Below are positions 1-43,279 of a stretch of DNA of 64,000 bases, in pieces. Source of the DNA: Euryarchaeota archaeon RBG_16_67_27 (GTDB taxonomy: Archaea > Thermoplasmatota > Thermoplasmata > RBG-16-68-12); NCBI GenBank assembly GCA_001800745.1, contig MGVZ01000029.1, positions 9,133 through 73,132 of the forward strand. Reading direction: 5' to 3'. The notes below the pieces were generated by a model. That model did not search any database, was not told the DNA's origin, and was given only the letters and a program-made list of their open reading frames with translations. Position numbers and translations under genes: made by a program. The number at the start of each line of letters is the position of its first letter. Position 1 is the first letter of the stretch.

Positions 1-227
1 TCTCCGACGACGCGCGCCGCCTTCTTGTACGCGCTTCCTGCGCCCATCCCGAGCTCGTTCATCGCGAACAGGATCCGCCGCTGGACGGGCTTGAGGCCGT
101 CCCGGGCGTCGGGCAGCGCGCGCCCGACGATCACGGACATCGCGTAGTCGATGTACGACCGGTGGAGCTCCTGCTCGATCGCCTGGGGGACGACGCGGCG
201 GTGCGGCTCCTGGGTCTCCTCGGGCAT
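1..227 (-). CDS. gyrA: DNA gyrase subunit A, N-terminal fragment (runs off window)
   Basis: Reverse-complement translation from the ATG at 227-225 gives [60 protein letters not shown]. This is the GyrA N-terminal signature ([25 protein letters not shown]) and it lies 7 bp downstream of gyrB in gyrB-gyrA order. Confidence 0.8.
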
Positions 228-234
228 CGTCCAC

Positions 235-2145
<1,911 letters not shown>

Positions 2146-2380
2146 CTATTTCGCGACCTTCTCAAGCGCGGATTCCGGGGTCTCTCGCACCCCACCCCGA
2201 GGGATGGTCAGCGTATGCGAAGGTCGCTTATAAACGTTCGGAGGCTGTTATATGGAGAAAAACCGTCCGACGCTTAGGGGCCCGTGCAGGACCTTTTCAT
2301 TTAAATAGGTTCACACGGGCCGTTCTCACGTCTGAGACCGATCGACCCGACCCCTCCGTTTCCCGTCGAGCGACTGGCCG

Positions 2381-3805
2381 TCAGGCGCTCTTCCAGCGCA
2401 CCCCGTCGCGGGTGTCTTCGAGCACGATCCCGAGCTTTGCGAGGCCCTCGCGGATCCCGTCCGCCGTCGCGAAGTCCTTCCGCTTCCGCGCGTCCTCGCG
2501 GAGGCGGACGAGGAGGTCCATCAGGCCCTCCACGACGGCGTCGTCCGCACTCGCGCGGGCGAACAGGCCGAGGACCTCGCCGAACCTCGCGAACGCGGTC
2601 GCGGCCTCGTCGAGCGCGACGCGGCCCGTGCCGACTTCGACCGCCTTGTTGACGCTCCGCGCGTACTCGAAGATTGCCGCGATCGCCTCCCGCGTGTTGA
2701 AGTCGTCCGCCATCGCGGCGTCGAACGCCTCGAGCGCCGTCGCCGTCGCGGCGCGGAGGGCGGCGTCCGCGGATCCCGCGTCGGGCGTCCGGCGGCGCTC
2801 GGCGTCGATCGTCCGGACGGTCTCGCGGAGGCGCGCGTACGAGCGGCCCGCCTCGTCGACGAGCTCGGGGGCGAAGTCAATGGGGGAGCGGTAGTGCGCG
2901 TTCAGGTAGAAGAACCGCAGGACCTCGGGCTCCCAGCGTGCGAGCGCGTCCTTCAGCGCCCAGAAGTTGCCGAGGGACTTGTGCATCTCCTCCCCGCTCA
3001 CCATGAGCATCCCGCCGTGCATCCACACGTTGACGAACGGCTTGACGCCCGTGAACGCCTCCGCCTGCGCGATCTCGGCCTCGTGGTGGGGGAACATGAG
3101 CTCCGTCGCGCCGCCGTGGATGTCGTACCGCGGCCCGAAATGCCGGACCGTGATCGCCGTGTCCTCGATGTGCCACCCGGGCCGGCCCTTGCCCCAGGGG
3201 CTGTCCCACGCCGGCTCGCCGGGCTTCTGCGCCTTCCAGAGCGCGAAGTCCGCGGGGTTGCGCTTGCGCTCATCCACGGCGACGCGCGCCCCCGCGATGT
3301 GCTCCTCGACCTTCTGGCCGCTGAGCTTCCCCCAGTCCGGGTACCGCGTCGTGTCGTAGTACACGCTGCCGTCCTCGGCCGCGTACGCGAACCCTTTCGC
3401 GATGAGCCCCTCGATCTGCTCGAGGATCTCCGGCATGTAGTCCGTCGCGTACGCGTACAGGTTCACGGAGGTGCACGCGAGACGCGTCATCCCGTCGAGG
3501 TACTCGCCGACGAACTCCTTCACGAGGTCCTTCCAGCTCCGGCCGGACTTGTGCATCCGGTCGATGAGGCGGTCCTCGATGTCCGTGACGTTCTGCAGGT
3601 AGAACACGTCGTATCCCTTGCGCCGGAGGTACCGCGCGACGACGTCGAACGCGACGTACGTCTTCGCGTGCCCGATGTGCGTCGCGTCGTACGGCGTGAT
3701 GCCGCAGACGAACATCGAGACGCGGCGGCCGTGGAGGGGAACGAAGTCCTCCTTCCTCCGCGAGAGTGTGTTGTACACCCGGATCGTCATCGGCGCGGGC
3801 CGCAT
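2381..3805 (-). CDS. cysS: cysteine--tRNA ligase (class I aaRS)
   Basis: 474-aa ORF with HIGH motif (PYDATHIGHAKTY), KMSKS-type motif (KSLGNF) and CysRS-like overall architecture. Confidence 0.93.
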   Translation of the reverse strand: MRPAPMTIRVYNTLSRRKEDFVPLHGRRVSMFVCGITPYDATHIGHAKTYVAFDVVARYLRRKGYDVFYLQNVTDIEDRLIDRMHKSGRSWKDLVKEFVGEYLDGMTRLACTSVNLYAYATDYMPEILEQIEGLIAKGFAYAAEDGSVYYDTTRYPDWGKLSGQKVEEHIAGARVAVDERKRNPADFALWKAQKPGEPAWDSPWGKGRPGWHIEDTAITVRHFGPRYDIHGGATELMFPHHEAEIAQAEAFTGVKPFVNVWMHGGMLMVSGEEMHKSLGNFWALKDALARWEPEVLRFFYLNAHYRSPIDFAPELVDEAGRSYARLRETVRTIDAERRRTPDAGSADAALRAATATALEAFDAAMADDFNTREAIAAIFEYARSVNKAVEVGTGRVALDEAATAFARFGEVLGLFARASADDAVVEGLMDLLVRLREDARKRKDFATADGIREGLAKLGIVLEDTRDGVRWKSA

Positions 3806-3894
3806 GAGGGGGGCCGGTATTAAGGTTCATCGGGTTCGCGCACGACGGTCGGGCCCCGAACGCGCGGTCGTTCGCCCCGGAAGCCTTATGGACG

Positions 3895-4644
3895 ATGCCG
3901 TTCCATGGGAGCCTGTCCATGGCGGGCCCCTTCCCCCACCCGCGGACGGTCTCGCGGACCCGCTCATGGGCCCGGGACCTCCATCGGGCTGCGCTTCTCC
4001 TCGGGATCGGCGGCGCGGTCTACTGGTTCTCGTTCGGCCTCGGTCGCCGGAGCCTGTACCTCCCCGGGCTCGGTACGATGTACGTCGACCTCCTCGCCGC
4101 CTGGATCGCGATTCTCCTCCAGGTCGCCGCGTGGCCGTCGTTGTGGGACGGGCTGCGCGGCCTCCGCGCGCGCCATCCGCGAGACGCGAACCCCCGGATT
4201 GCATGGCGCTCGTTCCTCACGGCGGTCCTCCTCGCCCTCGCGCCACTCGCGGTCCTCCCGCTCCAGTACCACGCGTTCAGCTCGGCGGGCGCCTCAGTCC
4301 TCGTGCTCTACGTGACTGTGTTCCCGTTCGTTCCCTGGACGTTCATCCCTCTCCTCGTCCTCCACGCGATCCTGTTCGGTCGAGTCGCGAACTACCTCGA
4401 GCCTCGCGGGAGGCACGTCGCGGACCTCGGTGCCCTCCTCCTCTTCGCCGTCGCGGCCGTGACGAGCGCGGTGATCATCGAGCATCCAGACCCGAACGCG
4501 TTCATGCGATCGTGGTCCGTCGGCCGAGGCCTCCTGCCCGCCGCCGCGTTCGCTGGGTACGCCCTCATCGCGGTCGGACTCACCCTCCACGTGGTCCCGT
4601 CCGGGGCGAGGGCGCGGGCTCGGGCCGCACACGGCGCGCGCTAG
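3895..4644 (+). CDS. hypothetical multi-pass membrane protein
   Basis: 249-aa ORF with about 6 hydrophobic helices. It sits between cysS and the transsulfuration genes. The true start may be the internal ATG at 3919. Confidence 0.55.
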   Translation: MPFHGSLSMAGPFPHPRTVSRTRSWARDLHRAALLLGIGGAVYWFSFGLGRRSLYLPGLGTMYVDLLAAWIAILLQVAAWPSLWDGLRGLRARHPRDANPRIAWRSFLTAVLLALAPLAVLPLQYHAFSSAGASVLVLYVTVFPFVPWTFIPLLVLHAILFGRVANYLEPRGRHVADLGALLLFAVAAVTSAVIIEHPDPNAFMRSWSVGRGLLPAAAFAGYALIAVGLTLHVVPSGARARARAAHGAR

Positions 4645-4645
4645 G

Positions 4646-5770
4646 TCAGGCGAGAATCCTCTCGACGTCCTCCGTCAGGTCGTCGATGTCCTCGAGGCCG
4701 ACGGACATCCGGACCAGGGCCTCCGTGATTCCCTGGCGCGACCGCTGTTCCGGCGGCACGCTCGCGTGGGTCATCGACCACGGGTGCTCAATCAGGCTCT
4801 CGACGCCGCCGAGGCTCTCCGCCAGGAGGACGACCTGGGCGCGTCGCAGGCGCTCGACCGCCCCGCGCGGGTCCTTGAGCTCGAAGCTGAGCATGCCGCC
4901 GAAGCGCCGCATCTGCTTCGCGGCGAGCCGGTGCCCCTCGTCGTCGGGCAGGCCAGGGTAGTGGACCTTCGCGACGGCCGGATGATCGTGGAGGAGCTTC
5001 GCGAGCGCCGCCGCGTTGTCGCACTGCCGTTCGATCCGCACGTCGAGGGTCTTGATCCCGCGAAGGATCAGCCAGGCGTCGAAGGGGCTCGGGACGGCTC
5101 CGATCGCGTTCTGCGCGAACTTGAGCCTATCGAAGAGGTCCGCGCGGTTCAGCACGAGGGCGCCCCCGAGGACGTCCGCGTGGCCGCCGAGGTACTTCGT
5201 CGCGCTGTGCACGACGACGTCGACGCCCCACTTCAGGGGGTTCTGCAGGGCCGGCGAGGCGAACGTGTTGTCGCACACGCTGATCGCCTCGTGCGCTTTC
5301 GCGATCACCGCGAGCTCGCGGAGGTCGAGGACCTTCAGGAGCGGGTTCGTGGGGGACTCGATCCAGACCATGCGGGTGTCGGGTCCCATCACGTCCTCGA
5401 CGTCGACGAGGTCTCGCATGTCGACGAAGGTCGACTCGATCCCGTACGCGCTCAGGATCCGCGTGAAGATCCGGTGCACGCCGCCGTAGCAGTCGTCCGT
5501 GACGACGACGTGGTCCCCTTTCTTGAGGAGGGTGGTGAGGGTCGTGATCGCCCCCATCCCGCTCGAGAACGCGAGGGCGTGCGTCGCGTCCTCCAGGGAC
5601 GCGAGGTTGCGTTCCAGGGCCTCCCGCGTCGGGTTCACCCCGCGGGCGTAGTCGTACGTCTGCTGGTCCTTCTGGGAGTATGTCGAGGTCATGTAGATCG
5701 GCGGGGTTACGGTGCCCGTCGGAGGCATAGGCTCGCTTCCGACGTGGATCGCCTTCGTTGCAAAGCGCAT
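4646..5770 (-). CDS. cystathionine gamma-lyase/gamma-synthase family PLP enzyme (Cys/Met metabolism)
   Basis: 374-aa ORF starting MRFATKAIHVGSEP.. with the MetB/MetC/CGL fold, including the ..SATKYLGGHADV.. PLP-lysine region. Confidence 0.9.
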   Translation of the reverse strand: MRFATKAIHVGSEPMPPTGTVTPPIYMTSTYSQKDQQTYDYARGVNPTREALERNLASLEDATHALAFSSGMGAITTLTTLLKKGDHVVVTDDCYGGVHRIFTRILSAYGIESTFVDMRDLVDVEDVMGPDTRMVWIESPTNPLLKVLDLRELAVIAKAHEAISVCDNTFASPALQNPLKWGVDVVVHSATKYLGGHADVLGGALVLNRADLFDRLKFAQNAIGAVPSPFDAWLILRGIKTLDVRIERQCDNAAALAKLLHDHPAVAKVHYPGLPDDEGHRLAAKQMRRFGGMLSFELKDPRGAVERLRRAQVVLLAESLGGVESLIEHPWSMTHASVPPEQRSRQGITEALVRMSVGLEDIDDLTEDVERILA

Positions 5771-5952
5771 GGGAATCGCCGGCGCGGGAGTCTCGGCGTG
5801 GGGGTAAAAGGTTTGCCCGTTAGCGTGCCGCGTTCTTCTGTCCCAGGTGAGTCAACGCGGCCAAGTGCCTGAACGTTCCCGCGAACCGTCGGATGTTCGA
5901 CCAATCGATTGAGTCTGCGTGGTATGTCCTACCTGGGACAGAAACATGGTCC

Positions 5953-7407
5953 CTACGCCCGTCCCGCGAGGTATTCGATCACGTCGATCCGCGTGATGAT
6001 CCCTTCGAGGCGGTTCTCCTTCCCCACGACGACGGCGGGCGTCCCCCGGAGGAGGGACTTGATCGCGCTCTCCAGGTCCGCGCCGGGCTCGACGAGCGGG
6101 AACGGCTTCTCCATGACCTTTGCGACGTAGTCGTCGTACATCTTCGGATTATCGAGGAGCGCCTTCATCAGGACCTCCTCCCGCAGGGAGCCGACCATGA
6201 TCCCCGTGTCGATCACGGGGAGCTGGGAGACGTTGTAGTGCCGCATGAGGTCCACGGCCTCCCGGACCTTCGCGGCGATGTCCACGGTGATCACGCCGGA
6301 CACCGCGCGCTCCTTCCCGCGGAGGATCGCCATCAGGGGCGCGACGGGCTCCTCGAGGAAGCCCTGCTCCTTGAGCCACTCCTCGTTGTGGGCTTTGGAG
6401 AGGTACCGGGACCCCGTGTCCGGGAGCAGGACGACGAGGACGTCCTCCGGCGACAGGGTATCCGCGATCCGGAGCGCGGCGACCACGGCCGCCCCGCTCG
6501 AGCTCCCCGCGAGGACCCCCTCCTCCCGCGCGAGGCGGCGCGCCATGAGGAACGCCTCCTTGTCGCTCACCTTTACGACCTCGTCCACGAACTCGAACCA
6601 CATCGTCTCCGGGATGAAGTCCTCCCCGATCCCCTCGATCTTGTACGTGTGGGCTTTCGTTATCTCCTTCCGGTAGAAGTAGTCCTTGAGCACGGAACCC
6701 AGGGGGTCCACCCCGATGACCCGGACCTTTGGGTTCCTCTCCTTGAGGAACTTCCCCGCTCCGCTGATCGTCCCGCCCGTCCCCATGCCGCACACGAAGT
6801 GCGTCACCCGCCCGTCCGTGTCCCGCCAGATCTCCGGGCCCGTCGTCTCGTAGTGCGCCTGCGGGTTCGCCTGGTTCGCGTACTGGTTCGGGAGGACGGA
6901 GTTCGGCGTCTCCCTGTGGATGCGTTCCGCGACCTTGTAGTACGACTCCGGATGGTCCGGCGGGACGGCGGTCGGGGTGACGACGACCCGCGCGCCGAAC
7001 GCCTTGAGCAGGTCGATCTTCTCCCGGCTCATCTTGTCAGGCATCGTGAACACGGTGCGGTACCCCCTGATCGCCCCGACCATCGCGAGGCCCATCCCCG
7101 TGTTCCCGCTCGTCGGCTCGATGACCGTGCCGCCGGGCTTCAGGGACCCCGCGCGCTCCGCGGCCTCGATCATCCGCTGCCCGATGCGGTCTTTCACGCT
7201 CCCGCCCGGGTTGAACATCTCCAGCTTCGCGAGGACAAGCCCCTGCGTGTGCGCCATGATTTTCGGGAGCTTCACGAGGGGGGTGTTCCCGATCGTGTCG
7301 AGGATGCTCTCGAAGTACCGCACCGCGGGTCCCCCTCCGTGGCCCCGAAGCATAGGAGGGACGCTATAAGAACGTGCGCGCGGGATCATAGTCGCAGGCG
7401 CGTGCAC
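5953..7407 (-). CDS. cystathionine beta-synthase (PLP domain plus C-terminal tandem CBS pair)
   Basis: The ILDTIGNTPLV and GGSVKDR motifs match the CysK/CBS PLP fold. The C-terminal region has two CBS domains (VSGVITVD.., ..GIITRIDVIEYL). The start is probably an internal Met: MLRG.. at 7353 or MIPR.. at 7389. Confidence 0.88.
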   Translation of the reverse strand: MHAPATMIPRARSYSVPPMLRGHGGGPAVRYFESILDTIGNTPLVKLPKIMAHTQGLVLAKLEMFNPGGSVKDRIGQRMIEAAERAGSLKPGGTVIEPTSGNTGMGLAMVGAIRGYRTVFTMPDKMSREKIDLLKAFGARVVVTPTAVPPDHPESYYKVAERIHRETPNSVLPNQYANQANPQAHYETTGPEIWRDTDGRVTHFVCGMGTGGTISGAGKFLKERNPKVRVIGVDPLGSVLKDYFYRKEITKAHTYKIEGIGEDFIPETMWFEFVDEVVKVSDKEAFLMARRLAREEGVLAGSSSGAAVVAALRIADTLSPEDVLVVLLPDTGSRYLSKAHNEEWLKEQGFLEEPVAPLMAILRGKERAVSGVITVDIAAKVREAVDLMRHYNVSQLPVIDTGIMVGSLREEVLMKALLDNPKMYDDYVAKVMEKPFPLVEPGADLESAIKSLLRGTPAVVVGKENRLEGIITRIDVIEYLAGRA

Positions 7408-7448
7408 GGCGACAACTTCTTCGGCCCGCGTTCCGATGCGCCTTCGCG

Positions 7449-7643
7449 ATGTTCCTCACCCGCGACCAGCGGTTCGTCGTCGTGTTCTACCTTACCTGGG
7501 TCCTCCTCATGCCCCTCGCAGCGCTCGCGGCCGCCGTTTCGACCGGGGCATGGGGCGCGGTGCTCTGGGCGGCGATCCTCGGCTGGACGGGCCTCGTGGT
7601 CCTCGTGTGGCTCCGCGGGAGACGGAGACCGCACGTCCTCTAG
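7449..7643 (+). CDS. small hypothetical membrane protein
   Basis: 64-aa ORF with two hydrophobic helices. No homology evidence is available from sequence alone. Confidence 0.3.
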   Translation: MFLTRDQRFVVVFYLTWVLLMPLAALAAAVSTGAWGAVLWAAILGWTGLVVLVWLRGRRRPHVL

Positions 7644-7664
7644 GAGCACCCGCAGGAGGCGGAA

Positions 7665-7737
7665 TGCCGGGGGAGGGAGTCGAACCCCCTGGAAACCGAT
7701 CTGCAGTCGGTCACATTAGCCGCTCTGTCACCCCGGC
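7665..7737 (-). tRNA. tRNA-Cys (anticodon GCA)
   Basis: The minus-strand 73-nt sequence GCCGGGG-UG-ACAG..-ACCGA CUGCAGA UCGGU-..-GGGGG UUCGACU CCCUC-CCCCGGC-A has a 7-bp acceptor stem, an anticodon loop C-U-GCA-G-A, a T-loop GGUUCGACUCC, no intron and no encoded CCA. Confidence 0.85.
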
Positions 7738-7864
7738 TCCGCGGACCCATCCGGGCCTTGGTAATTGAACCTTTTTCCCGCACGCGCGTGAAGCGGGAAT
7801 TGACGCAACGTGCATCGTACAATCTCAAAGAACCTTTTTATGGCGCGGGCCCGCTTGCGCGCGC

Positions 7865-9163
7865 GTGTCGGCCTCGGGAGCAAAGACGATCACGGACACG
7901 GTCCACGGGACCGTGCGTCTCGAGCCCCTCACCCTCGACCTCCTGGAGACCCTCGAGATCCAGCGGCTGAACTCGATCCGGCAGCTCGGCCTCACATACC
8001 TCGTGTTCCCGGGCGCGAACCACAGCCGCGTCGAGCACTGCCTCGGCGTCGGGCACGTCGCCTCGGAGATGGCCCGCGTCCTTGGCCTCCCGGAGGAAGA
8101 GCGGAAGCTCGTCCAGGCAGCGGGGCTCCTCCACGACGTCGGGCACGGCCCGTTCTCCCACACCCTTGAGCACGTCCTGAGCCGCGAGCTCGCGGTCGAC
8201 CACATGGATCTGACCCAGCGGATCATCACGGGCAAGGACGACAACGTCGTGCCGGACGAGCGGAAGGGGTTCCCGGACGTCCCGCGGATCCACGAGGTCC
8301 TCGCGCGGCACGCCGTCAAGCCGGATGCAGTCGCCGCGCTTATCCGCGGTCCCGCAGACGCGGCTCCGGACCTCTTCGCTTCGCGGCCGCGGGGGGCGGG
8401 GAAGCAGTACCTCGCAGAGATCATCCACAGTCCGATGGACGCGGACCAGATCGACTACCTCATGCGGGACGCGCACTACACCGGCGCCGCGCACGGGATG
8501 ATCGACGTCGCGCGGATCCTGCAGACCCTCCGCGTGCACCGCGGCTCCCTCGCCCTTGACCGGAAGGGCCTCCCGGCCCTCGAGGGGATGCTCGTCGCCC
8601 GCGGCCTCATGTATTCGAGCGTGTACTTCCACAAGACCGTGCGGATCGCGGAGGAGATGGTCGCCCGCGCCGTCGAGCGCTCCGACGCGCCGATCGCCGC
8701 GATCCAGAAGATGGTCGACGCCGAGCTCCTCTCGTGGCTCGCGGACCAGGGCGCCTTCCAGAGAGAGATCGCGCTCCGCGTGAAGTTCCGGAAGCTGTAC
8801 AAGCGCGCGGTCTCGTTCGACTGGGACGGCCTCACGGAGCCCATGCGCGACACGTTTGCCGCGTTCAAAGATGCGGCCCACCGGCGTCGCGTGGAAGACC
8901 GGATCGCGCGGCGCGCGGGGCTCGAGCCCGGCCAGGTCATCGTCGACGTGCCCCTCCCGGAGCTCCTCGTGAGCGAGCCCCGGATCGCGAAGACCGAGGT
9001 CGCGATCCTCGAGGATGGCAAGGCCCGCCCGTTCTCCAAGGTCTCCACGCTCGGCCGCGCCCTCCAGACCCGGCAGGTCGTCGACTGGGTCCTCATGGTC
9101 GCGTGCCCTCCCGAGGCCGTGGCGCGTGTACGGAAGGCGGCCGCGCCGGCGCTCGGTCGCTGA
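7865..9163 (+). CDS. HD-domain dNTP triphosphohydrolase-like protein (dGTPase/SAMHD1 family)
   Basis: 432-aa ORF with a GTG start. It has the HSRVEHCLGVGHV motif and an LLHDVGHGPFSH HD motif typical of dNTPases. Confidence 0.8.
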   Translation: MSASGAKTITDTVHGTVRLEPLTLDLLETLEIQRLNSIRQLGLTYLVFPGANHSRVEHCLGVGHVASEMARVLGLPEEERKLVQAAGLLHDVGHGPFSHTLEHVLSRELAVDHMDLTQRIITGKDDNVVPDERKGFPDVPRIHEVLARHAVKPDAVAALIRGPADAAPDLFASRPRGAGKQYLAEIIHSPMDADQIDYLMRDAHYTGAAHGMIDVARILQTLRVHRGSLALDRKGLPALEGMLVARGLMYSSVYFHKTVRIAEEMVARAVERSDAPIAAIQKMVDAELLSWLADQGAFQREIALRVKFRKLYKRAVSFDWDGLTEPMRDTFAAFKDAAHRRRVEDRIARRAGLEPGQVIVDVPLPELLVSEPRIAKTEVAILEDGKARPFSKVSTLGRALQTRQVVDWVLMVACPPEAVARVRKAAAPALGR

Positions 9164-9220
9164 CGCGCGGGCGCCCCGCCTTTGTCAAATCGGCGGACGT
9201 TCGTCAGACACTTTTAAATA

Positions 9221-9230
9221 GCGTGCGCCG
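9221..9230 (+). promoter_or_regulatory. TATA-like box (cttttaaata) upstream of ftsZ1
   Basis: AT-rich element within the GC-rich intergenic region, about 55 bp upstream of the ftsZ1 ATG. Confidence 0.35.
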
Positions 9231-9284
9231 GATACGAGGCTCCACTTTGCGGGATGGGATGACCGCCGCGATGTTGGTGACGCG

Positions 9285-10379
9285 ATGAACTCGATGCTAG
9301 AGGACGTGCTCGCGAGGGAGGGGAGCGCCCCTGCCTTTGAGGACACTCGGGTCGACTCGGAACTCGAAGAGATGCTCAGCAAGATGCGGACGAACATCAA
9401 GATCGTCGGCATCGGCGGCGGCGGGTGCAACACGATCGCGCGAATCTTCAACGAGGGAATCGTCGGGGCCGACCTCTACGCGGCGAACACGGACGCCCAG
9501 CATCTCCTCCACATCACCTCCCCGAAGAAGGTCCTCCTCGGGCGGCGGATCACGAAAGGCCTCGGCGCCGGGGCGCTGCCCCAGATCGGCGAGGAGGCCG
9601 CGCGGGAGGCCGAGGAGGAGCTCCGCCAGCTCCTCCATGGCTCCGACATCGTCTTCGTCACCTGCGGCCTCGGTGGCGGGACGGGGACGGGCGGGAGCGG
9701 CTACGTCGCGCGCCTGGCGAAGGAGATGGGCGCCCTCACGATCGCCGTCGTCACCCTGCCGTTCCGCGGCGAGGGGAAGCTCCGCATGGAGAGCGCGGAG
9801 TGGGGCCTCGAGCGTCTCCGGGACGCGGCGGACACCGTGATCACGATCCCGAACGACAAGCTCCTCGACCTCGTGCCGCGGATGTCCCTGAACCTCGCGT
9901 TCAAGTTCGCGGACGAGGTCCTCATGCGCTCGATCAAGGGCCTCACCGAGATTATCACGAAGCCCGGCCTCGTGAACCTCGACTTCAACGACGTGAAGAC
10001 GATCATGAAGGGCGGCGGCGTCGCGATGATCGGACTCGGAGAGAGCCAGGCGATGGGCGAGAACCGCGCCGTCGAGGCAATCGAGGAGGCGATCAACTCC
10101 CCGCTCCTCGAGGTCGACGTGTCCTCGGCCCACGGCGTCCTCATCAACGTGACGGGCGGGAACGACATGACGATCTCCGAGGCGGAGCGCGTCGCCGAGG
10201 TCGTCCAGGAGAAGGTCTCCCCGACCGCGCGGATCATCTGGGGCGCGACCGTGGACCCGACCCTCGAGCACACGCTCCGCGTGATGCTCGTTGCGACGGG
10301 CGTCCGCTCGAAGCAGATCGTCGGCCGGCGGGACCCCGCGGAGGAGCGCGCCCGCGTCGGCGTGGACGTCATCCGCTGA
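9285..10379 (+). CDS. ftsZ: cell division GTPase FtsZ (paralog 1)
   Basis: Tubulin/FtsZ signature [10 protein letters not shown]7 loop region, 364 aa. Confidence 0.95.
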
Positions 10380-10499
10380 GGCCGGGGCGGGGAAACCCGT
10401 GACGCACGCCGTGCGTCCGGAAACCTTTATCTACGCCCCTCCTTTACGTCGCACCCACGGCTGTTCCGACCCCGCAGTTCGGCAGCCGGAGGCCGGACC

Positions 10500-11609
10500 A
10501 TGGATTCCATCGTGAGGGAAGTCGTCACCCGCGCCGGGGACGAGGCCCGCGTGCCGGACGCCCCGACGGCCCGCGTGGGGATCACCACGGAGGATGCCGA
10601 GCTCGAGCGCATCCTCGCAAGCCTCCGGACGAACATCAAGATCATCGGGATCGGCGGCGGCGGCTCGAACACGATCGACCGGCTCGTCGAGGCCGGCATC
10701 GTCGGTGCGGAGCTGTTCGCATGCAACACGGATGCGCAGCACCTCCTCACGATCCGCTCGCCGCACAAGGTGCTCCTCGGCCGGCGCACGACGCGCGGCC
10801 TCGGCGCCGGGGCGCTGCCCCAGGTCGGCGAGGAAGCGGCACGGGAGGCGTCCGACGAGCTCCGCGCGGTCCTCCACGGCGCGGACATGGTCTTCATCAC
10901 CTGCGGCCTCGGCGGCGGCACGGGCACGGGCGGCGGGCCGATCGTCGCTCAGCTCTCGAAGGAGGCCGGCGCGCTGACGATCGCGATCTGCACCTTCCCC
11001 TTCCGCGCGGAGGGAGCGATCCGGGCGGAGAACGCGGAGTACGGGCTCGAGAAGCTCCGGAACTTCGCGGACACCGTGGTCGTGATTCCGAACGACAAGC
11101 TCCTCGAAATCGTCCCGCGCCTCGCCCTGAACCAGGCGTTCAAGGTCGCAGACGACGTCCTCATGCGCGCGATCAAAGGGATCACGGAGGTCATCACGAA
11201 GCCCGGTCTCGTGAACCTCGACTTCAACGACATCAGGACAATCATGAAGGGCGGCGGCGTCGCGATGATCGGGCTCGGAGAGAGCGACAGCGAGAACCGC
11301 GCGGAGGAGGCGATCGAGGCCGCGATCAACTCCCCGCTCATCGACGTCGACGTGTCCGCGGCGACGGGCGCCCTCGTGAACGTCACGGGCGGGAACGACA
11401 TGTCCGTCTCTGAGGCGGAGAAGGTCGCGGAGATCGTCCAAGGCCGAATCAGCCCGAACGCGCGGATCATCTGGGGCGCGGCCGTCGACCCGGGCGTGCA
11501 GCACAAGCTCCGGGTCATGCTGATCCTGACCGGCGTCCGCTCGAAGCAGATCCTCGGCCCCGGGGAGCACCTCCGCGGGCGCGAGGTCGGCGTGGACATC
11601 GTGCGCTGA
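10500..11609 (+). CDS. ftsZ: cell division GTPase FtsZ (paralog 2)
   Basis: 369 aa with GIGGGGSNT. It is the second tandem paralog, as is typical of Euryarchaeota. Confidence 0.95.
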   Translation: MDSIVREVVTRAGDEARVPDAPTARVGITTEDAELERILASLRTNIKIIGIGGGGSNTIDRLVEAGIVGAELFACNTDAQHLLTIRSPHKVLLGRRTTRGLGAGALPQVGEEAAREASDELRAVLHGADMVFITCGLGGGTGTGGGPIVAQLSKEAGALTIAICTFPFRAEGAIRAENAEYGLEKLRNFADTVVVIPNDKLLEIVPRLALNQAFKVADDVLMRAIKGITEVITKPGLVNLDFNDIRTIMKGGGVAMIGLGESDSENRAEEAIEAAINSPLIDVDVSAATGALVNVTGGNDMSVSEAEKVAEIVQGRISPNARIIWGAAVDPGVQHKLRVMLILTGVRSKQILGPGEHLRGREVGVDIVR

Positions 11610-11619
11610 GGTACGCGAC

Positions 11620-11859
11620 ATGGCAGAGATCCTCGACAAGGGCTGGGAGGTCCAACGTCGGATCGAGGAGCGCACGAAGCGTCTCGGGAAGGGCAAGTAC
11701 GGCCGGATCCTGAAGATGGCCCGCAGGCCGACCTCCGACGAGTACTCGAAGGTCGTCCTGATCACGAGTCTCGGGATCGCCGCGATCGGGTTCGTCGGGT
11801 TCCTCATCTACTGGGCGATGCGGTACGGACCGGATTGGTTCCGCGCCCTCTTCTCCTGA
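11620..11859 (+). CDS. secE: preprotein translocase subunit SecE/Sec61-gamma
   Basis: 79 aa with a single C-terminal TM helix, in the conserved position immediately upstream of spt5/nusG. Confidence 0.8.
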   Translation: MAEILDKGWEVQRRIEERTKRLGKGKYGRILKMARRPTSDEYSKVVLITSLGIAAIGFVGFLIYWAMRYGPDWFRALFS

Positions 11860-11868
11860 GGTGCACGC

Positions 11869-12801
11869 ATGGGACTCCTCGATGACCTCGCGAAGACCCC
11901 GCCAACGAAGCCGGAGCCGAAGCCGGAGGAGCGCCCGGCCCCGGGCCGGTACGGCGTGAAGCTCGAGCTCGCGGAGGAGAAAGTCTCCCTCACCGCGGGG
12001 CAGGCGAAGGACTACGCCGTCGTGGTGACGAACACGGGCACGGAGGACGACGCGATCGTCTTCCGGCTCGACCTCGTGTACAACTCGGAGGTCCCCGAGC
12101 CGCCGGAGTGGATCATCAAGGTCTGGGGCATCGAGGAGAAGGTGTGGGACATCACTTTCACCAAGGTGACGGAGAAGGAGTTCATGCTCATCCCCGAGGG
12201 GCAGCGGGAGATCACCCTCACAATCACCTGCCCGAAAGGCGCGCGGTTCGGGGACCGGCTCAACGTCGTCGTGAACGCGATCTCCCGTGGCGACCCGACC
12301 GCCTTCGACGCGAAGACGTTGTCGTTCACCGCGCGACAGGCCGTCGTCGCCGTGAAGTCGTCGATCGGCCACGAGCGCGCGGTCGCAGATTCGATCTTCG
12401 CGCGGGCGAAGGCGAAGGACCTCGGAATCTTCGCGATCCTCGCGCCCGCGAACCTGCGCGGGTACGTGTTCGTCGAGTCGATGAACCCGGACCGGCTCGA
12501 GGAACTCGTCCGGGGGGTCCGGCGGGCCCGCGGGGTCGTGAAGGGACGCGGCGAGGAGAAGACGATCGCGTTCTCCGACATCGACCTGTACCTCGCCCCG
12601 AAGCCGATCGTGAGCGGGATCATGGAAGGCGACATCGTCGAGCTCGTCGCCGGGCCGTTCAAGGGCGAGAAGGCCCGCGTGCAGAAGATCGACGAGACGA
12701 AGGAGGAGATCACTGTCGAGCTGTTCGAGGCGATGGTGCGGATCCCCGTGACCGTCCGGGGAGACCACGTGCGGGTCCTGCAGAAGGAAGAGGAGAAGTA
12801 G
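11869..12801 (+). CDS. spt5: transcription elongation factor Spt5/NusG with an atypical ~160-aa N-terminal extension
   Basis: The C-terminal ~150 aa carry the NGN domain (IFAILAPANLRGYVFVE) and a KOW motif (GDIVELVAGPFKGEKARVQKID). The same uninterrupted ORF has an extra N-terminal region (TAGQAKDYAVVVTNTGTEDD...ITLTITCP) resembling a beta-sandwich/CARDB-like domain. Confidence 0.8.
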   Translation: MGLLDDLAKTPPTKPEPKPEERPAPGRYGVKLELAEEKVSLTAGQAKDYAVVVTNTGTEDDAIVFRLDLVYNSEVPEPPEWIIKVWGIEEKVWDITFTKVTEKEFMLIPEGQREITLTITCPKGARFGDRLNVVVNAISRGDPTAFDAKTLSFTARQAVVAVKSSIGHERAVADSIFARAKAKDLGIFAILAPANLRGYVFVESMNPDRLEELVRGVRRARGVVKGRGEEKTIAFSDIDLYLAPKPIVSGIMEGDIVELVAGPFKGEKARVQKIDETKEEITVELFEAMVRIPVTVRGDHVRVLQKEEEK

Positions 12802-40150: not shown

Positions 40151-40383
40151 GGCGCCGCATCGAGCGGTCCTTATTTCAAGGGTTCGACCTCGTTGTGTCC
40201 GCGCGCGATTCGCTCCATCCGAGGTCGGAGGAACGCGAATCGGAAACGTCGTCGCCTGCGTGCGTCGCACGTGCGGTGCGCTCCTGCTTGGCGTCGCGCG
40301 AAATCGGCCGCAAACGCCTAAATAGACCCTGACGAATGACGCGCTGCCCCGGGAGCATTCCGGGGCCGGCCGGTCGTGTCGCG

Positions 40384-40935
40384 ATGACGGAACCTCGTCG
40401 GATGAAGGTGAAGGTCTGCCTCGTCGGCGAGCACGCCGTGGGCAAGACGTCCCTCATCCGCCGCTACGTCCTCGAGGAGTTCGACGATCGCTACATCGTG
40501 ACGCTCGGAGCGAAGGTCTCGAAGAAAGAGATGCTCCTCACGCCGAAGAGCGGTCCGCCGGTCCAGATGGACATGACGATCTGGGACATCATGGGATCGA
40601 AGGGGTTCCGGGAGCTCCTGCGCGAGGCGTACTTCCACGGCGCTCAGGGAATCCTCGCGGTCGCCGACATCACGCGGTACGACACGCTCGAGGACCTCGA
40701 CTCCTGGGTCGAGTCCGTGTTCCGCACCGTCGGTGAGATCCCCGTCGCGTTCGCGGTGAACAAGCTCGATCTCCGGGACCAGGCCGCCTTCGGCGAGGAA
40801 CAGGTGAAACAGGCGACAGAGGCGTTCAATGCCCCGTACTTCTTCAGCTCCGCGAAGACCGGGGAGAACGTCGAGACCGTGTTCCAGAGCCTCGGCGAGA
40901 CCGTCGTGAAGATGGCGTCGAAGTCGGGCGCTTGA
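40384..40935 (+). CDS. Ras/Rab-like small GTPase
   Basis: G1 GEHAVGKT, G3 DIMG, G4 NKLD, G5 SAK, about 184 aa. The start could also be 40336 (track) or 40402 (MKVKV). Confidence 0.8.
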   Translation: MTEPRRMKVKVCLVGEHAVGKTSLIRRYVLEEFDDRYIVTLGAKVSKKEMLLTPKSGPPVQMDMTIWDIMGSKGFRELLREAYFHGAQGILAVADITRYDTLEDLDSWVESVFRTVGEIPVAFAVNKLDLRDQAAFGEEQVKQATEAFNAPYFFSSAKTGENVETVFQSLGETVVKMASKSGA

Positions 40936-40981: not shown

Positions 40982-43279
40982 GTGGCGTCCCCTCCGAGGC
41001 CCGAAGCCGTCCGCGTGCGCGTCACGCGGGACCTCGGCCTCTTCGACGTCACGATGGCCGCCTCGGGTACGATGGTCGGCGCCGCGGTGTTTCTCCTCGC
41101 AGGGGCGACGTTCGCCGTCGCGGGTCCCCTCACCTTCGGCAGCATCCTGTTCGCGGGATTCGTCGTCGCCCTGTCCGGCCTTGCCTACGCGGAGCTTGCC
41201 TCGGGACGGGAAGGGGCGTCCGGAGGGGCGTACGAATGGGTCCGCTCCGCGCTTCCCGCCCCGAGCGGCTTCCTCGCGGGATGGTCGTCGTGGGGCGGTC
41301 ACCTCGCGGCGTCCGCGCTCAGCGCCCTCGGCCTTGGCGCATTCCTCCTCGAGCTCCTCCGCCCGTCCGCGGAAGCGTTCCTCCCGATCGGGCTCGATGA
41401 GCGCGTCCTCGCGCTCGTCCTCCTCGCGGTCGCGACGGGGTTCCATTTCGCCCGCCTCCACGTCCCCGCGCGGACTCTCAGCCGGCTGACGTTCGTGAAG
41501 ATCCTCCTCATCCTCGGCGTCGCCGCGGTGGGGCTCGCGTCCCTCGCGGCGCCCGCCGCGGACCGCGGCATCGGGACCCCATCGACGCCCTCGGGCGCGC
41601 TCGGGCTCGCGCTCGGCGCAGGCGTGTTCTTCATCGCCTTCCAGGGGTTCGAGTCCGTCGTCCAGCTCGGGGAGCAGACGAAGCAGCCGGCGCGGACCGT
41701 GCCCCGCGGGATCCTCCTGGCCGTGCTGCTGTCCCTCGGCGTCTACCTCGCGTACTTCGCTGCGGTCCTCACGAACGCGCCGACGGCCGCGACCTCCGGG
41801 TGGCCAGGATGCCCCGCGTGCGCCGGGGGGACGGAGGATCTCGGGATCGTGAGCCTGTCCCGGATCGCCCTCGGGGGGCCGTTCTGGCGGGAGATCTTCC
41901 TCCTCGTCGGCGTCGCCTCCATGGCGGGTGCCCTCAACGCGAACCTCACGTCCGCCGTCCGGGTCGCGTTCGGGATGTCCCGCGACCGGCTCCTCCCTGC
42001 GAGCCTCTCCCACGTCGGCGGTCGCGAGGTGCCCGTCGTCGGGCTCGCGATGACCGCGGGCGTGACGGCGATCCTTCTCGCGTTCTCCCTCGAGACGATC
42101 GCGATCCTCGCGGGCCTCGCGTTCCTTCTCCTGTTCGCCTTCGTCCATGGCTCCGTCATCTCCCTGCGGCGCCGGGAGCGGCGCTCGCGACCCGGCTTCC
42201 GCGTCCCTCTCGTCCCCGCCGTGCCGATCCTCGCGATCGCCCTGAACCTTGCCCTCGGGGCCGTCCTCTGGAACTATCCGGCTCCCGCCGGGGGACGGAT
42301 GCCCGCCGGCGTCCTCGCGGCGTACATCGGCGCGGTCTGGCTCGCCGCGGGCCTGATCTTCCACTGGTTCGCAGGCGGGCGGGAGGCGCTGCGCCGGACG
42401 GCGCTCGTCCCCAAGGTGGAGGTCGAGGACGTCCTTACCCCGACGGAGGACCACGTCGAGCTCGAGCGGTTCCGCGTGTTCCTACCCCTCCGTGAGTTCG
42501 AGGATCTCGAGCTCGTCGATCTCGGTGCGCGGATCGCGCGGGCGCGCCATGGGGAACTCAGCCTCCTCAACGTCGTTGAAATCCCGCGGAACCTCCCGCC
42601 GAAGGCGATCCGCTTCCGGTTCGTCGACGACCGGATCAAAGGTCTCCAGCGGCTCGCGCGCGTCGGGATGCGGCTCGGCGTCGACACCCGGCCCGTCGTG
42701 AAGATCGGTCACAAGGTCTACGAGATCATCCTCGACACGATGCGCGACGAGGCCGTGAACGTCCTCGTGATGGGATGGCGCGGAGGCCGGACGGACGGCG
42801 CGGAGCGGAGAATCCTCGGGAGCAACATCGACTACCTGATCGAGAACGCGACGTGCGACGTCGTCGTGTACAAGACGCACGGCCTGCGCCGTCCCCTGAA
42901 GAAGCTCGTGATCCTCACGAGCCCGATCTGGAGCATCCTGGGGATCGACGAGCTCGCCCTTGTCCTCGCGGAGTCCGACCTTCCGACGATCGAGATCGTG
43001 AGCCTCGCGGCCGATCCGTCGGACGCGGAGCGGATCAAGAAGGAGGTCGCGCCGTTCCTGGAGACCTGCCACTCGCGCGGGATCGCCGTCGAGCACAAGG
43101 TCCTGTATTCGACTCAGTGGGAGTCCGTGGCTCTCCACGAAGGGGCGGACGCCTCCGCGCTCCTCATCCGCGCGAGCTCCCCCGGGGGCCTGAAGAAGTT
43201 CACCCTGAACCCTGTGGAGGACCGGATCGTGAAGCTCGCACCCTGCCCGGTTCTCATCCTCAAGAAGGGGACGTCCTAG
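40982..43279 (+). CDS. APC-superfamily amino-acid permease fused to C-terminal tandem universal stress protein (UspA) domains
   Basis: About 12 TM helices with APC-like motifs in the N-terminal 480 aa. The C-terminal 280 aa carries two Usp-like alpha/beta domains (..VLVMGWRGG..; ..APCPVLILKK). Confidence 0.82.
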   Translation: MASPPRPEAVRVRVTRDLGLFDVTMAASGTMVGAAVFLLAGATFAVAGPLTFGSILFAGFVVALSGLAYAELASGREGASGGAYEWVRSALPAPSGFLAGWSSWGGHLAASALSALGLGAFLLELLRPSAEAFLPIGLDERVLALVLLAVATGFHFARLHVPARTLSRLTFVKILLILGVAAVGLASLAAPAADRGIGTPSTPSGALGLALGAGVFFIAFQGFESVVQLGEQTKQPARTVPRGILLAVLLSLGVYLAYFAAVLTNAPTAATSGWPGCPACAGGTEDLGIVSLSRIALGGPFWREIFLLVGVASMAGALNANLTSAVRVAFGMSRDRLLPASLSHVGGREVPVVGLAMTAGVTAILLAFSLETIAILAGLAFLLLFAFVHGSVISLRRRERRSRPGFRVPLVPAVPILAIALNLALGAVLWNYPAPAGGRMPAGVLAAYIGAVWLAAGLIFHWFAGGREALRRTALVPKVEVEDVLTPTEDHVELERFRVFLPLREFEDLELVDLGARIARARHGELSLLNVVEIPRNLPPKAIRFRFVDDRIKGLQRLARVGMRLGVDTRPVVKIGHKVYEIILDTMRDEAVNVLVMGWRGGRTDGAERRILGSNIDYLIENATCDVVVYKTHGLRRPLKKLVILTSPIWSILGIDELALVLAESDLPTIEIVSLAADPSDAERIKKEVAPFLETCHSRGIAVEHKVLYSTQWESVALHEGADASALLIRASSPGGLKKFTLNPVEDRIVKLAPCPVLILKKGTS

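Follow-up and report, generated by a model that had tools for sequence, protein, structure and literature searches.

The window analyzed here is a 64-kb stretch of DNA from RBG_16_67_27, a metagenome-assembled genome (MAG) of the archaeal order RBG-16-68-12 in the Genome Taxonomy Database, which equals Candidatus Angelarchaeales and is alternatively labelled Lunaplasmatales (PMC9038741, PMC9287336). Four genes related to cysteine follow one another on its minus strand, i.e. a tRNA-Cys(GCA) gene (7665-7737), a gene for cystathionine beta-synthase (CBS; 5953-7323), a gene for a pyridoxal phosphate (PLP)-dependent enzyme of the cystathionine gamma-lyase (CGL) type (4646-5770), and cysS for cysteinyl-tRNA synthetase (CysRS; 2381-3790). 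An initial annotation of this DNA had placed the four genes here and had suggested that they provide co-regulated cysteine supply and charging. ARAGORN, Rfam, Pfam, and NCBIfam confirm the genes and their strand, and a comparison of the window with loci fetched from related genomes, on which the results below are based, points to a different explanation for their proximity: probably, an old tRNA-Cys-cysS-gyrB-gyrA backbone came to lodge a bacterial-type reverse-transsulfuration cassette, which has been retained by history.

Genes and features of the locus

The CBS gene encodes a protein of 456 amino acids, which bears the NCBI name 'cystathionine beta-synthase' and consists of a PLP domain of fold-type II (PF00291, 274.9 bits) and a C-terminal Bateman module (PF00571, two stretches) without an N-terminal heme domain. 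The Schiff-base lysine, Lys44, lies in SVKDR and aligns with K44 of the M. tuberculosis CBS (MtbCbs), and the motifs TSGNTG and GTGGT are found at residues 71 and 181, respectively. The protein scores above the curated equivalog cutoff of TIGR01137 (EC 4.2.1.22; 539.9 versus 510.25 bits); the other NCBIfam models matching it (cysteate synthase, CysK, and CysM) stay well short of the cutoffs set for them or barely reach them. Among solved structures, M. tuberculosis Rv1077 is the closest (403 bits, with residues 4-453 of 456 in the alignment). MtbCbs is heme-less, makes cystathionine from serine and homocysteine and not from O-acetylserine, and is activated by S-adenosylmethionine (SAM) (PMC9232105). 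By homology, the CBS of the window would also condense serine and homocysteine to cystathionine. Human CBS is likewise a SAM-activated enzyme. At the positions of the four proposed SAM-contact residues of MtbCbs (E390, S411, D432, and W433), the protein of the window has V, E, G, and T, and the ribose-binding aspartate of the second CBS motif (GIITRIDVIEY) is retained; because the SAM contacts are unconserved, SAM activation should not be assumed. The CBS locus was correctly recognized by the initial annotation, which let the gene begin at 7407; we place the start at GTG 7323 because most homologues have 456 residues and because a conserved promoter-like box falls inside the longer open reading frame (ORF).

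The CGL-type enzyme (374 amino acids, OGS47116.1) matches PF01053 with 475 bits over profile positions 1-379 of 381 and has its PLP lysine, Lys192, within SATKY. Its seven top relatives in the Protein Data Bank (PDB) are deposited as CGL or CGL-like and score 394-401 bits, the solved bacterial CGLs 7ba4, 4ixs/3e6g, and 6k1l-o (including 6k1n) giving the highest matches; methionine gamma-lyases (at most 325 bits), E. coli cystathionine gamma-synthase (CGS; 311 bits), and plant cystathionine beta-lyase (CBL; 308 bits) score lower. Glu318, located in LAESLGGVESL, aligns with the same ESLGG motif in 7ba4 and 4ixs and presumably occupies the position of E339 in the human and E333 in the yeast enzyme. 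CGL and CGS typically share this glutamate, and methionine gamma-lyases and beta-lyases have another residue in its place; it fails to distinguish CGL from CGS. A decision between the latter two by single residues was rejected as unreliable, since the Asp/Glu before YxR is, like the ESLGG glutamate, common to both. Based on best match and context, with no subfamily threshold passed, the enzyme is likely a CGL, and it would cleave cystathionine to cysteine, 2-oxobutyrate, and ammonia. Thus, homology and profile searches bear out the initial naming of the two PLP enzymes at equivalog level for CBS, whereas the CGL-type enzyme reaches no equivalog cutoff and has CGLs as its best PDB matches. Reverse transsulfuration, as initially proposed, is nevertheless the best reading of the pair considering the TIGR01137 score and Rv1077 relationship of CBS, the CGL-deposited relatives of its partner, and the adjacency of the two genes in bacteria described below, and we regard this function as likely.

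The tRNA-Cys gene (73 nt, without encoded CCA) was found by ARAGORN, scores 54.8 bits on Rfam RF00005 (cutoff 29), and is near-identical in ~30 loci. Its discriminator base is A73 and not the canonical U73, both in the window and in ~30 related loci (L004-L024 and L084-L093 examined); a compensatory change at 4:69 (G:C to C:G) across loci confirms the register of the tRNA. U73 is the canonical major identity determinant for CysRS (PMC9976931), and A73 tRNA-Cys has been reported in Methanolobus and Methanocella (PMC8762117); for Thermoplasmata, we found no report of A73 tRNA-Cys in the literature. The cysS product (469 amino acids; PF01406) is a standard class I CysRS (TIGR00435, 470.9 bits versus a cutoff of 340) with HIGH at residue 38, EMHKS at the KMSKS position, and DALR_2 and CysS_C domains. 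We aligned it with the E. coli enzyme (1li5), whose zinc ligands we take to be C28, C209, H234, and E238. The columns of C28, H234, and E238 align, and the C209 column has an Asp (GWHIEDTAI versus GWHIECSAM) in 25 of 25 Thermoplasmata CysRS examined, i.e. in the window and 24 related loci; the whole protein has two cysteines. The locus therefore points to an unusual tRNA-Cys/CysRS identity pair. As for CBS, the locus of cysS had been identified correctly and its start is moved, here from 3805 to ATG 3790, in agreement with NCBI OGS47168.1. In one related locus (L088, 10001-12133), cysS is called as a protein of 710 amino acids; the N-terminal extension of ~240 residues is probably a start-codon miscall and covers the stretch where L004 has an opposite-strand membrane ORF of 224 amino acids.

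One oppositely oriented membrane protein gene had been noted between the CGL gene and cysS, and it is indeed found there on the plus strand, with its start at 3919 rather than 3895 (3919-4644; 241 amino acids, OGS47115.1, ~6-7 helices). Its GC content at third codon positions (GC3) is coding-like and 34 columns are invariant in an alignment of 31 sequences, which shows it to be a genuine and conserved gene; among relatives it is 44-61% identical and diverges much faster than its neighbours. The initial annotation overlooked a second plus-strand ORF, which lies in the spacer between tRNA-Cys and CBS (7449-7643, 64 amino acids). This ORF encodes a hydrophobic two-helix protein, has a coding-like GC content by codon position (0.70/0.50/0.91), and has no Pfam match. 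Among all loci it has a single weak match, in the near-identical strain of L003 (55% over 49 amino acids), and it is absent where the tRNA-CBS gap is 66-166 nt; we list it as an uncertain, lineage-specific gene.

Gene order in relatives and bacterial affinity of the cassette

To place the locus in context, we used a species-level genome scan with CBS followed by tblastn with the window proteins and ARAGORN. CBS has 63-89% identical counterparts in 23 Thermoplasmata loci, and in 12 of these the order tRNA-Cys, CBS, CGL, membrane gene (opposite strand), cysS, and gyrB is complete. Eight further loci end at contig edges and agree as far as they reach, L022 and L023 have CBS-CGL-cysS without the membrane gene, and L017 is too short for context. 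CBS-CGL likewise precedes cysS-gyrB-gyrA in more distant loci (L084, L085 from MAG RBG_16_68_12, L087, L088, L091, and L092). The gene order, the conservation of which had been suggested as a check on the initial annotation, recurs in ~30 related genomes, and the clustering is more than a chance arrangement in one genome.

This conservation extends to genes of other function. gyrB (235-2145, minus strand; DNA_gyraseB, Toprim, and HATPase_c domains), a gene without functional connection to cysteine, comes after cysS wherever a locus reaches that far. On the other side, beyond tRNA-Cys, the plus strand carries genes for an HD-domain protein, two tandem ftsZ paralogues (9285-10379 and 10500-11609), secE, spt5, and ribosomal proteins. 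The HD-domain protein, the two ftsZ, secE, spt5, gyrB, and gyrA are conserved as faithfully as the cysteine genes, and the block HD-ftsZ-ftsZ-secE-spt5-L11 is kept even in lineages that lack CBS and CGL. Because the loci are related by descent and unrelated neighbours are equally conserved, synteny alone is no evidence of functional coupling. Separately, we observed that in L084 (7423-8810) CBS is split into two ORFs, a PLP part of 288 amino acids and a CBS-domain part of 161 amino acids, which reflects a frameshift, an assembly error, or decay to a pseudogene; gyrA of the same locus has an intein with a LAGLIDADG domain.

After the Thermoplasmata matches, the next 57 CBS loci are without exception bacterial (50-58% identity), including Ignavibacteria, Bacteroidota, and Gemmatimonadota. 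A CGL homologue (47-53% identity) lies directly downstream of CBS, in the same order and orientation as in the window, in 39 of these 57 loci and in all archaeal loci reaching that far; neither cysS nor tRNA-Cys was found near CBS in any of the 57 bacterial loci. In neighbor-joining (NJ) trees of limited samples, the archaeal CBS (27 sequences) and CGL (26 sequences) are each separated from the bacterial sequences by one split. The nearest outside relatives of the cassette are therefore bacterial and the archaeal copies are of single origin. Both genes have a GC3 of 0.94, as do their neighbours, and GC content is uniform at 65-72% across the window without local anomaly. Because the archaeal copies have their own split and a host-like GC3, any transfer would be old, and the simplest reading is that a bacterial CBS-CGL operon was transferred once into this part of Thermoplasmata.

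The slot between tRNA-Cys and cysS and its predicted transcription signals

In several sister lineages, the slot occupied by the cassette is empty. In L086 (9913-10001), L089 (9913-10001), and L090 (9709-9797), tRNA-Cys ends 15-16 nt before the ATG of cysS on the same strand, with TAGGAAGTTTCGACG and variants as spacer, and in L095, which is also cassette-free, the gap is 69 nt. Because lineages without the pair have tRNA-Cys 15-69 nt before cysS, tRNA-Cys-cysS-gyrB is probably the older backbone, and the adjacency of tRNA-Cys and cysS probably predates the arrival of the biosynthetic genes. A spacer of 15-16 nt leaves no room for a separate promoter, and implies that tRNA and mRNA would be co-transcribed in these lineages and that 3' processing of the tRNA would form the 5' end of the cysS mRNA. 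In other lineages the slot has different cargo. L093 has a gene for a 1071-amino acid surface protein in place of the cassette, and PKD/SBP surface proteins, MazE-PIN, glyoxalase/UbiA, an aconitase-like gene, Hdr/Mvh genes, and a weak double-GTPase-like cassette are found in or beside the slot elsewhere. This variety argues that the tRNA-Cys flank is an insertion hotspot. The CBS-CGL cassette itself is at the cysS-proximal end of the slot, with a tRNA-CBS distance ranging from 66 nt to >7 kb.

The membrane gene is missing in L022, L023, L084, L085, L087, and L092, which represent deeper lineages with CBS-CGL-cysS. Other unrelated insertions have entered the gap between CGL and cysS as well: L004 has an additional small membrane ORF there, and L085 has genes for a multicopper oxidase, an HTH protein, and a PIN protein. 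The membrane gene thus appears to be an unrelated orphan inserted later between CGL and cysS on the opposite strand. A recent integrase-mediated insertion of the cassette was considered and is not demonstrable, since blastn-short of the tRNA against all archaeal loci gave no att-like direct repeat and only chance matches of 11-16 nt. A metagenome scan for the exact tRNA-cysS junction gave no match. Another scan, with the tRNA 3' end, listed 80 loci, some of them bacterial or phage-like, and we used only those with HD or ftsZ upstream or with CBS or cysS downstream. We also note that directly downstream of tRNA-Cys in other Thermoplasmata (L110, L112, L157, and L158) there is a conserved cassette of genes for two paralogous P-loop proteins (Pfam DO-GTPase2, E 7.6e-6, under the cutoff), a 286-amino acid protein, and, on the opposite strand, a ~456-amino acid protein, the latter two without family; this cassette may be a conflict or defence system.

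Promoter-like elements were predicted from conservation in aligned upstream regions only. All are on the minus strand, and three resemble a B recognition element (BRE)/TATA box. The first, AAAAAGGTTCAATTAC (7761-7776), is ~25-40 nt before the 5' end of the tRNA, would be its promoter, and is conserved as AAAG[GCT]TTCAATTAC in ~20 related loci. The second, CGCGCACGTTCTTATAG (7364-7380), precedes the GTG of CBS by ~44 nt, with a Shine-Dalgarno sequence resembling GGAGG after it; most loci of the clade have GTTCTTATA conserved ahead of CBS. The third, GAACCTTAATA (3818-3828), is found upstream of cysS in the CBS-CGL-carrying loci with at most a few substitutions, and its position ~30 nt before ATG 3790 implies a leaderless or near-leaderless cysS mRNA. 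For CGL, the conserved box CAAACCTTTTACCC (5802-5815) after the CBS stop codon would be either a promoter-like element of CGL or an oligo-T terminator of CBS; clade-wide, gCAA[ag]CCT[at]TTTAC and then GACTCC and GGCGAT precede the CGL ATG.

In the window, the four genes share a strand, but a plus-strand gene intervenes, the intergenic gaps are long (tRNA-CBS 341 nt, CBS-CGL 182 nt, and CGL-cysS ~850 nt), and there are four separate promoter-like boxes, an arrangement at odds with a single operon. The CBS-CGL spacer (5771-5952) is 47-58 nt in most close relatives, and the extra sequence in the window is upstream of the CAAACCTTTTACCC box. A cmscan of 1-12000 (E <= 1) detected no riboswitch or T-box; besides the tRNA, it returned a match to AS-traI inside the CBS coding region (6303-6355, plus strand), which we treat as chance because its 32 bits are far under the gathering score of 99. 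In the family of the window, tRNA-Cys, CBS, CGL, and cysS thus appear to be separate transcription units. Given the opposite-strand gene, the long gaps, the conserved box of each gene, and the lack of a riboswitch or T-box in the scanned region, the initially proposed co-regulation of supply and charging is not supported. An operon is plausible in deeper lineages, where the CBS and CGL genes either overlap or leave 6-44 nt between them and where the CGL-cysS gap is ~55-90 nt (L022, L084, and L092).

Explanations for the arrangement

Our working hypothesis is that tRNA-Cys(GCA)-cysS-gyrB-gyrA would be the old Thermoplasmata state, and that a bacterial-type cassette of CBS and CGL would have been inserted between tRNA-Cys and cysS at the tRNA-flanking hotspot and then inherited vertically inside a very stable gene block, with the orphan membrane gene being inserted later on the opposite strand. 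A weak selective advantage of being linked to cysS may have contributed. CBS would convert serine and homocysteine to cystathionine, CGL would convert cystathionine to cysteine, and CysRS would then charge tRNA-Cys. For an amino-acid-consuming archaeon without the tRNA-dependent route, this pathway would provide free cysteine from methionine sulfur. A Pfam scan detected no sulfur-amino-acid genes among twenty further ORFs of the window.

Known systems share parts of this arrangement. Like the pair in the window, the actinobacterial cbs-metB genes (M. tuberculosis Rv1077/Rv1079 and Rhodococcus qingshengii) combine a heme-less CBS with a C-terminal Bateman module and a PF01053 'MetB', and Rhodococcus strains in which cbs or metB is knocked out grow less well when methionine is the sulfur source (PMC9426449). 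The pair in the window differs in its archaeal host with archaeal promoter-like boxes, in the SAM contacts described above, and in being flanked by tRNA-Cys and cysS, which the bacterial loci lack. Compared with the CBS-CGL pairs of Ignavibacteria, Bacteroidota, Gemmatimonadota, and others, its nearest outside relatives, it is likewise distinguished by the nearby cysS and tRNA-Cys as well as by its own NJ split and host-like GC3. Four cysteine routes have been listed for archaea, and the cystathionine-based one is included (PMC2330236, citing Zhou and White 1991) beside those involving O-acetylserine or O-phosphoserine sulfhydrylases and SepRS/SepCysS. The initial annotation had contrasted the pair with the SepRS/SepCysS route of many archaea; this contrast is inapplicable because SepRS/SepCysS are reported absent from Thermoplasmata, except for SepRS-like genes in two lineages (PMC8762117), and because the archaeal cystathionine route has been known since 1991 (PMC2330236). 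We found no literature on these genes, their bacterial affinity, or their position between tRNA-Cys and cysS in Thermoplasmata. In Firmicutes, the gltX-cysE-cysS operon is under the control of a T-box that senses uncharged tRNA-Cys, and we know of no T-boxes in archaea. As in the window, a cysteine-biosynthesis gene is linked to cysS on the same strand in this operon (~300 genomes, PMC5499597). The biosynthetic step, however, is serine acetyltransferase rather than CBS/CGL, and gltX-cysE-cysS is a true operon with a T-box leader, whereas the window has separate promoter-like boxes and neither a T-box nor another Rfam element.

Several points weigh against assigning a CGL to the cassette. The NCBI label of OGS47116.1 is 'cystathionine gamma-synthase', and the protein passes no NCBIfam equivalog cutoff, including those of the CGL models PRK07671 (CGL/homocysteine desulfhydrase; 444 versus 594 bits), PRK07582 (338 versus 440), and PRK06434 (325 versus 634); its top model is the CGS-named PRK07811 (481.5 versus 513 bits), which we take to be of the actinobacterial MetB (Rv1079) type. 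Rv1079-type 'MetB' is bifunctional in vitro (PMC12910592). Moreover, solved relatives deposited as CBL (6cja) or CGS (3qhx and 4l0o) score only ~4-10% under the CGL-deposited ones, 'cysteine catabolism' K01760 is enriched in this order (Diamond et al., PMC9038741), which may or may not refer to this gene, and H2S production is known for both CBS and CGL enzymes (PMC9426449, PMC12910592). The PF01053 enzyme could thus be a CGS, a beta-lyase, or a homocysteine/cysteine desulfhydrase instead of a cysteine-making gamma-lyase, with the pair working in methionine synthesis, in the breakdown of sulfur amino acids, or in the release of H2S in an organism that respires amino acids. In favour of a CGL, the enzyme retains the ESLGG glutamate, and its seven best solved relatives are CGLs or CGL-like by deposition. 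Its tight pairing with a genuine CBS, in archaea as well as in the 39 bacterial loci, makes metabolic sense only as a conversion of homocysteine via cystathionine to cysteine. Moreover, if PRK07811 is of the Rv1079 type, even the CGS-named match leads to an enzyme taken to act in vivo as CGL, i.e. as the lyase of reverse transsulfuration (PMC12910592). For these reasons, we consider a function other than CGL unlikely. Far less probable still is the initial suggestion that the intervening membrane protein imports or exports sulfur amino acids for the system. Only its location, with CGL on one side and cysS on the other, and a topology of several membrane helices would speak for this role: the protein matches no Pfam or NCBIfam family, its 97 homologues are all from this clade, unnamed or 'hypothetical', and devoid of Pfam domains, and its all-helical AF2 model (pLDDT 79.5) has no match in a Foldseek search of the PDB and thus no similarity to solved transporters (best E 0.03, TM 0.27). 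Its fast divergence, its absence from deeper lineages with CBS-CGL-cysS, and the other insertions in the same gap point in the same direction.

The position of the cassette could, alternatively, reflect selection, CBS and CGL having been recruited to tRNA-Cys/cysS and kept there for coordinated expression, e.g. by read-through from the tRNA promoter with tRNA processing freeing the mRNAs. The common strand and cysteine theme of the genes would fit this idea, and several observations count for it and against retention by history. In an NJ tree of cysS+gyrB from a limited sample, cassette-bearing loci fall into two deep groups (B and C) and cassette-free loci into two places, which implies at least two gain or loss events; possibly, the same slot captured the cassette repeatedly, and this would speak for selection. 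Assuming that any tRNA flank can be a target of insertion, we estimate the chance that a cysteine cassette lands between tRNA-Cys and cysS under neutrality at ~1 in 45. The short gaps between CBS and CGL and from CGL to the same-strand cysS in L022, L084, and L092 are compatible with co-transcription, the junctions in cassette-free lineages almost force co-transcription of tRNA and cysS, and the 30 nt shown after tRNA-Cys for each locus hold no T-run of at least 4, making read-through into CBS possible; gltX-cysE-cysS provides a bacterial precedent. All this has to be set against the situation in the window, where an opposite-strand gene separates CGL from cysS, all three gaps are long, and a separate conserved BRE/TATA-like box precedes every gene, the one of cysS making its mRNA look leaderless. 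In addition, unrelated genes lie in the tRNA-CBS interval, the length of which varies widely among lineages, the searches gave no riboswitch, T-box, or regulatory motif common to the genes, and unrelated neighbours are conserved equally well. We therefore regard a dedicated, co-regulated module as less likely than insertion followed by inheritance and as rather doubtful in itself, and do not rate selection lower because the cassette lies exactly between tRNA-Cys and cysS and is held in two deep lineages. A bolder combination of these elements, which seems to us improbable, is that tRNA-Cys and cysS are inherited and transcribed together as one unit, whose identity set is non-canonical (A73 and Asp at the zinc-ligand position), and that this unit captured CBS-CGL, possibly repeatedly, because read-through from the tRNA promoter would couple the making of cysteine to how much tRNA-Cys and CysRS is supplied; such a unit would parallel, in archaea and with a tRNA in the lead, the cysE-cysS arrangement that bacteria control by a T-box.

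If insertion and inheritance of a reverse-transsulfuration cassette is correct, members of the soil and sediment order RBG-16-68-12 would make cysteine from methionine-derived homocysteine with bacterial genes, fitting their proposed amino-acid-based lifestyle, and the database label 'cystathionine gamma-synthase' of the second enzyme would be corrected. The parts are ordinary and knowledge of the pathway itself is unchanged; the practical use is in the metabolic reconstruction of these MAGs. The locus would also offer a clean, datable case of a foreign operon in a tRNA-flanking hotspot that was inherited across two deep lineages while different cargo reused the slot. Elsewhere in the window, the plus strand has a gene for a Ras/Roc-family small GTPase (40336-40935; PF00071, E 5e-32), and the adjoining gene (40982-43279) encodes an amino-acid permease fused to two universal-stress-protein domains.

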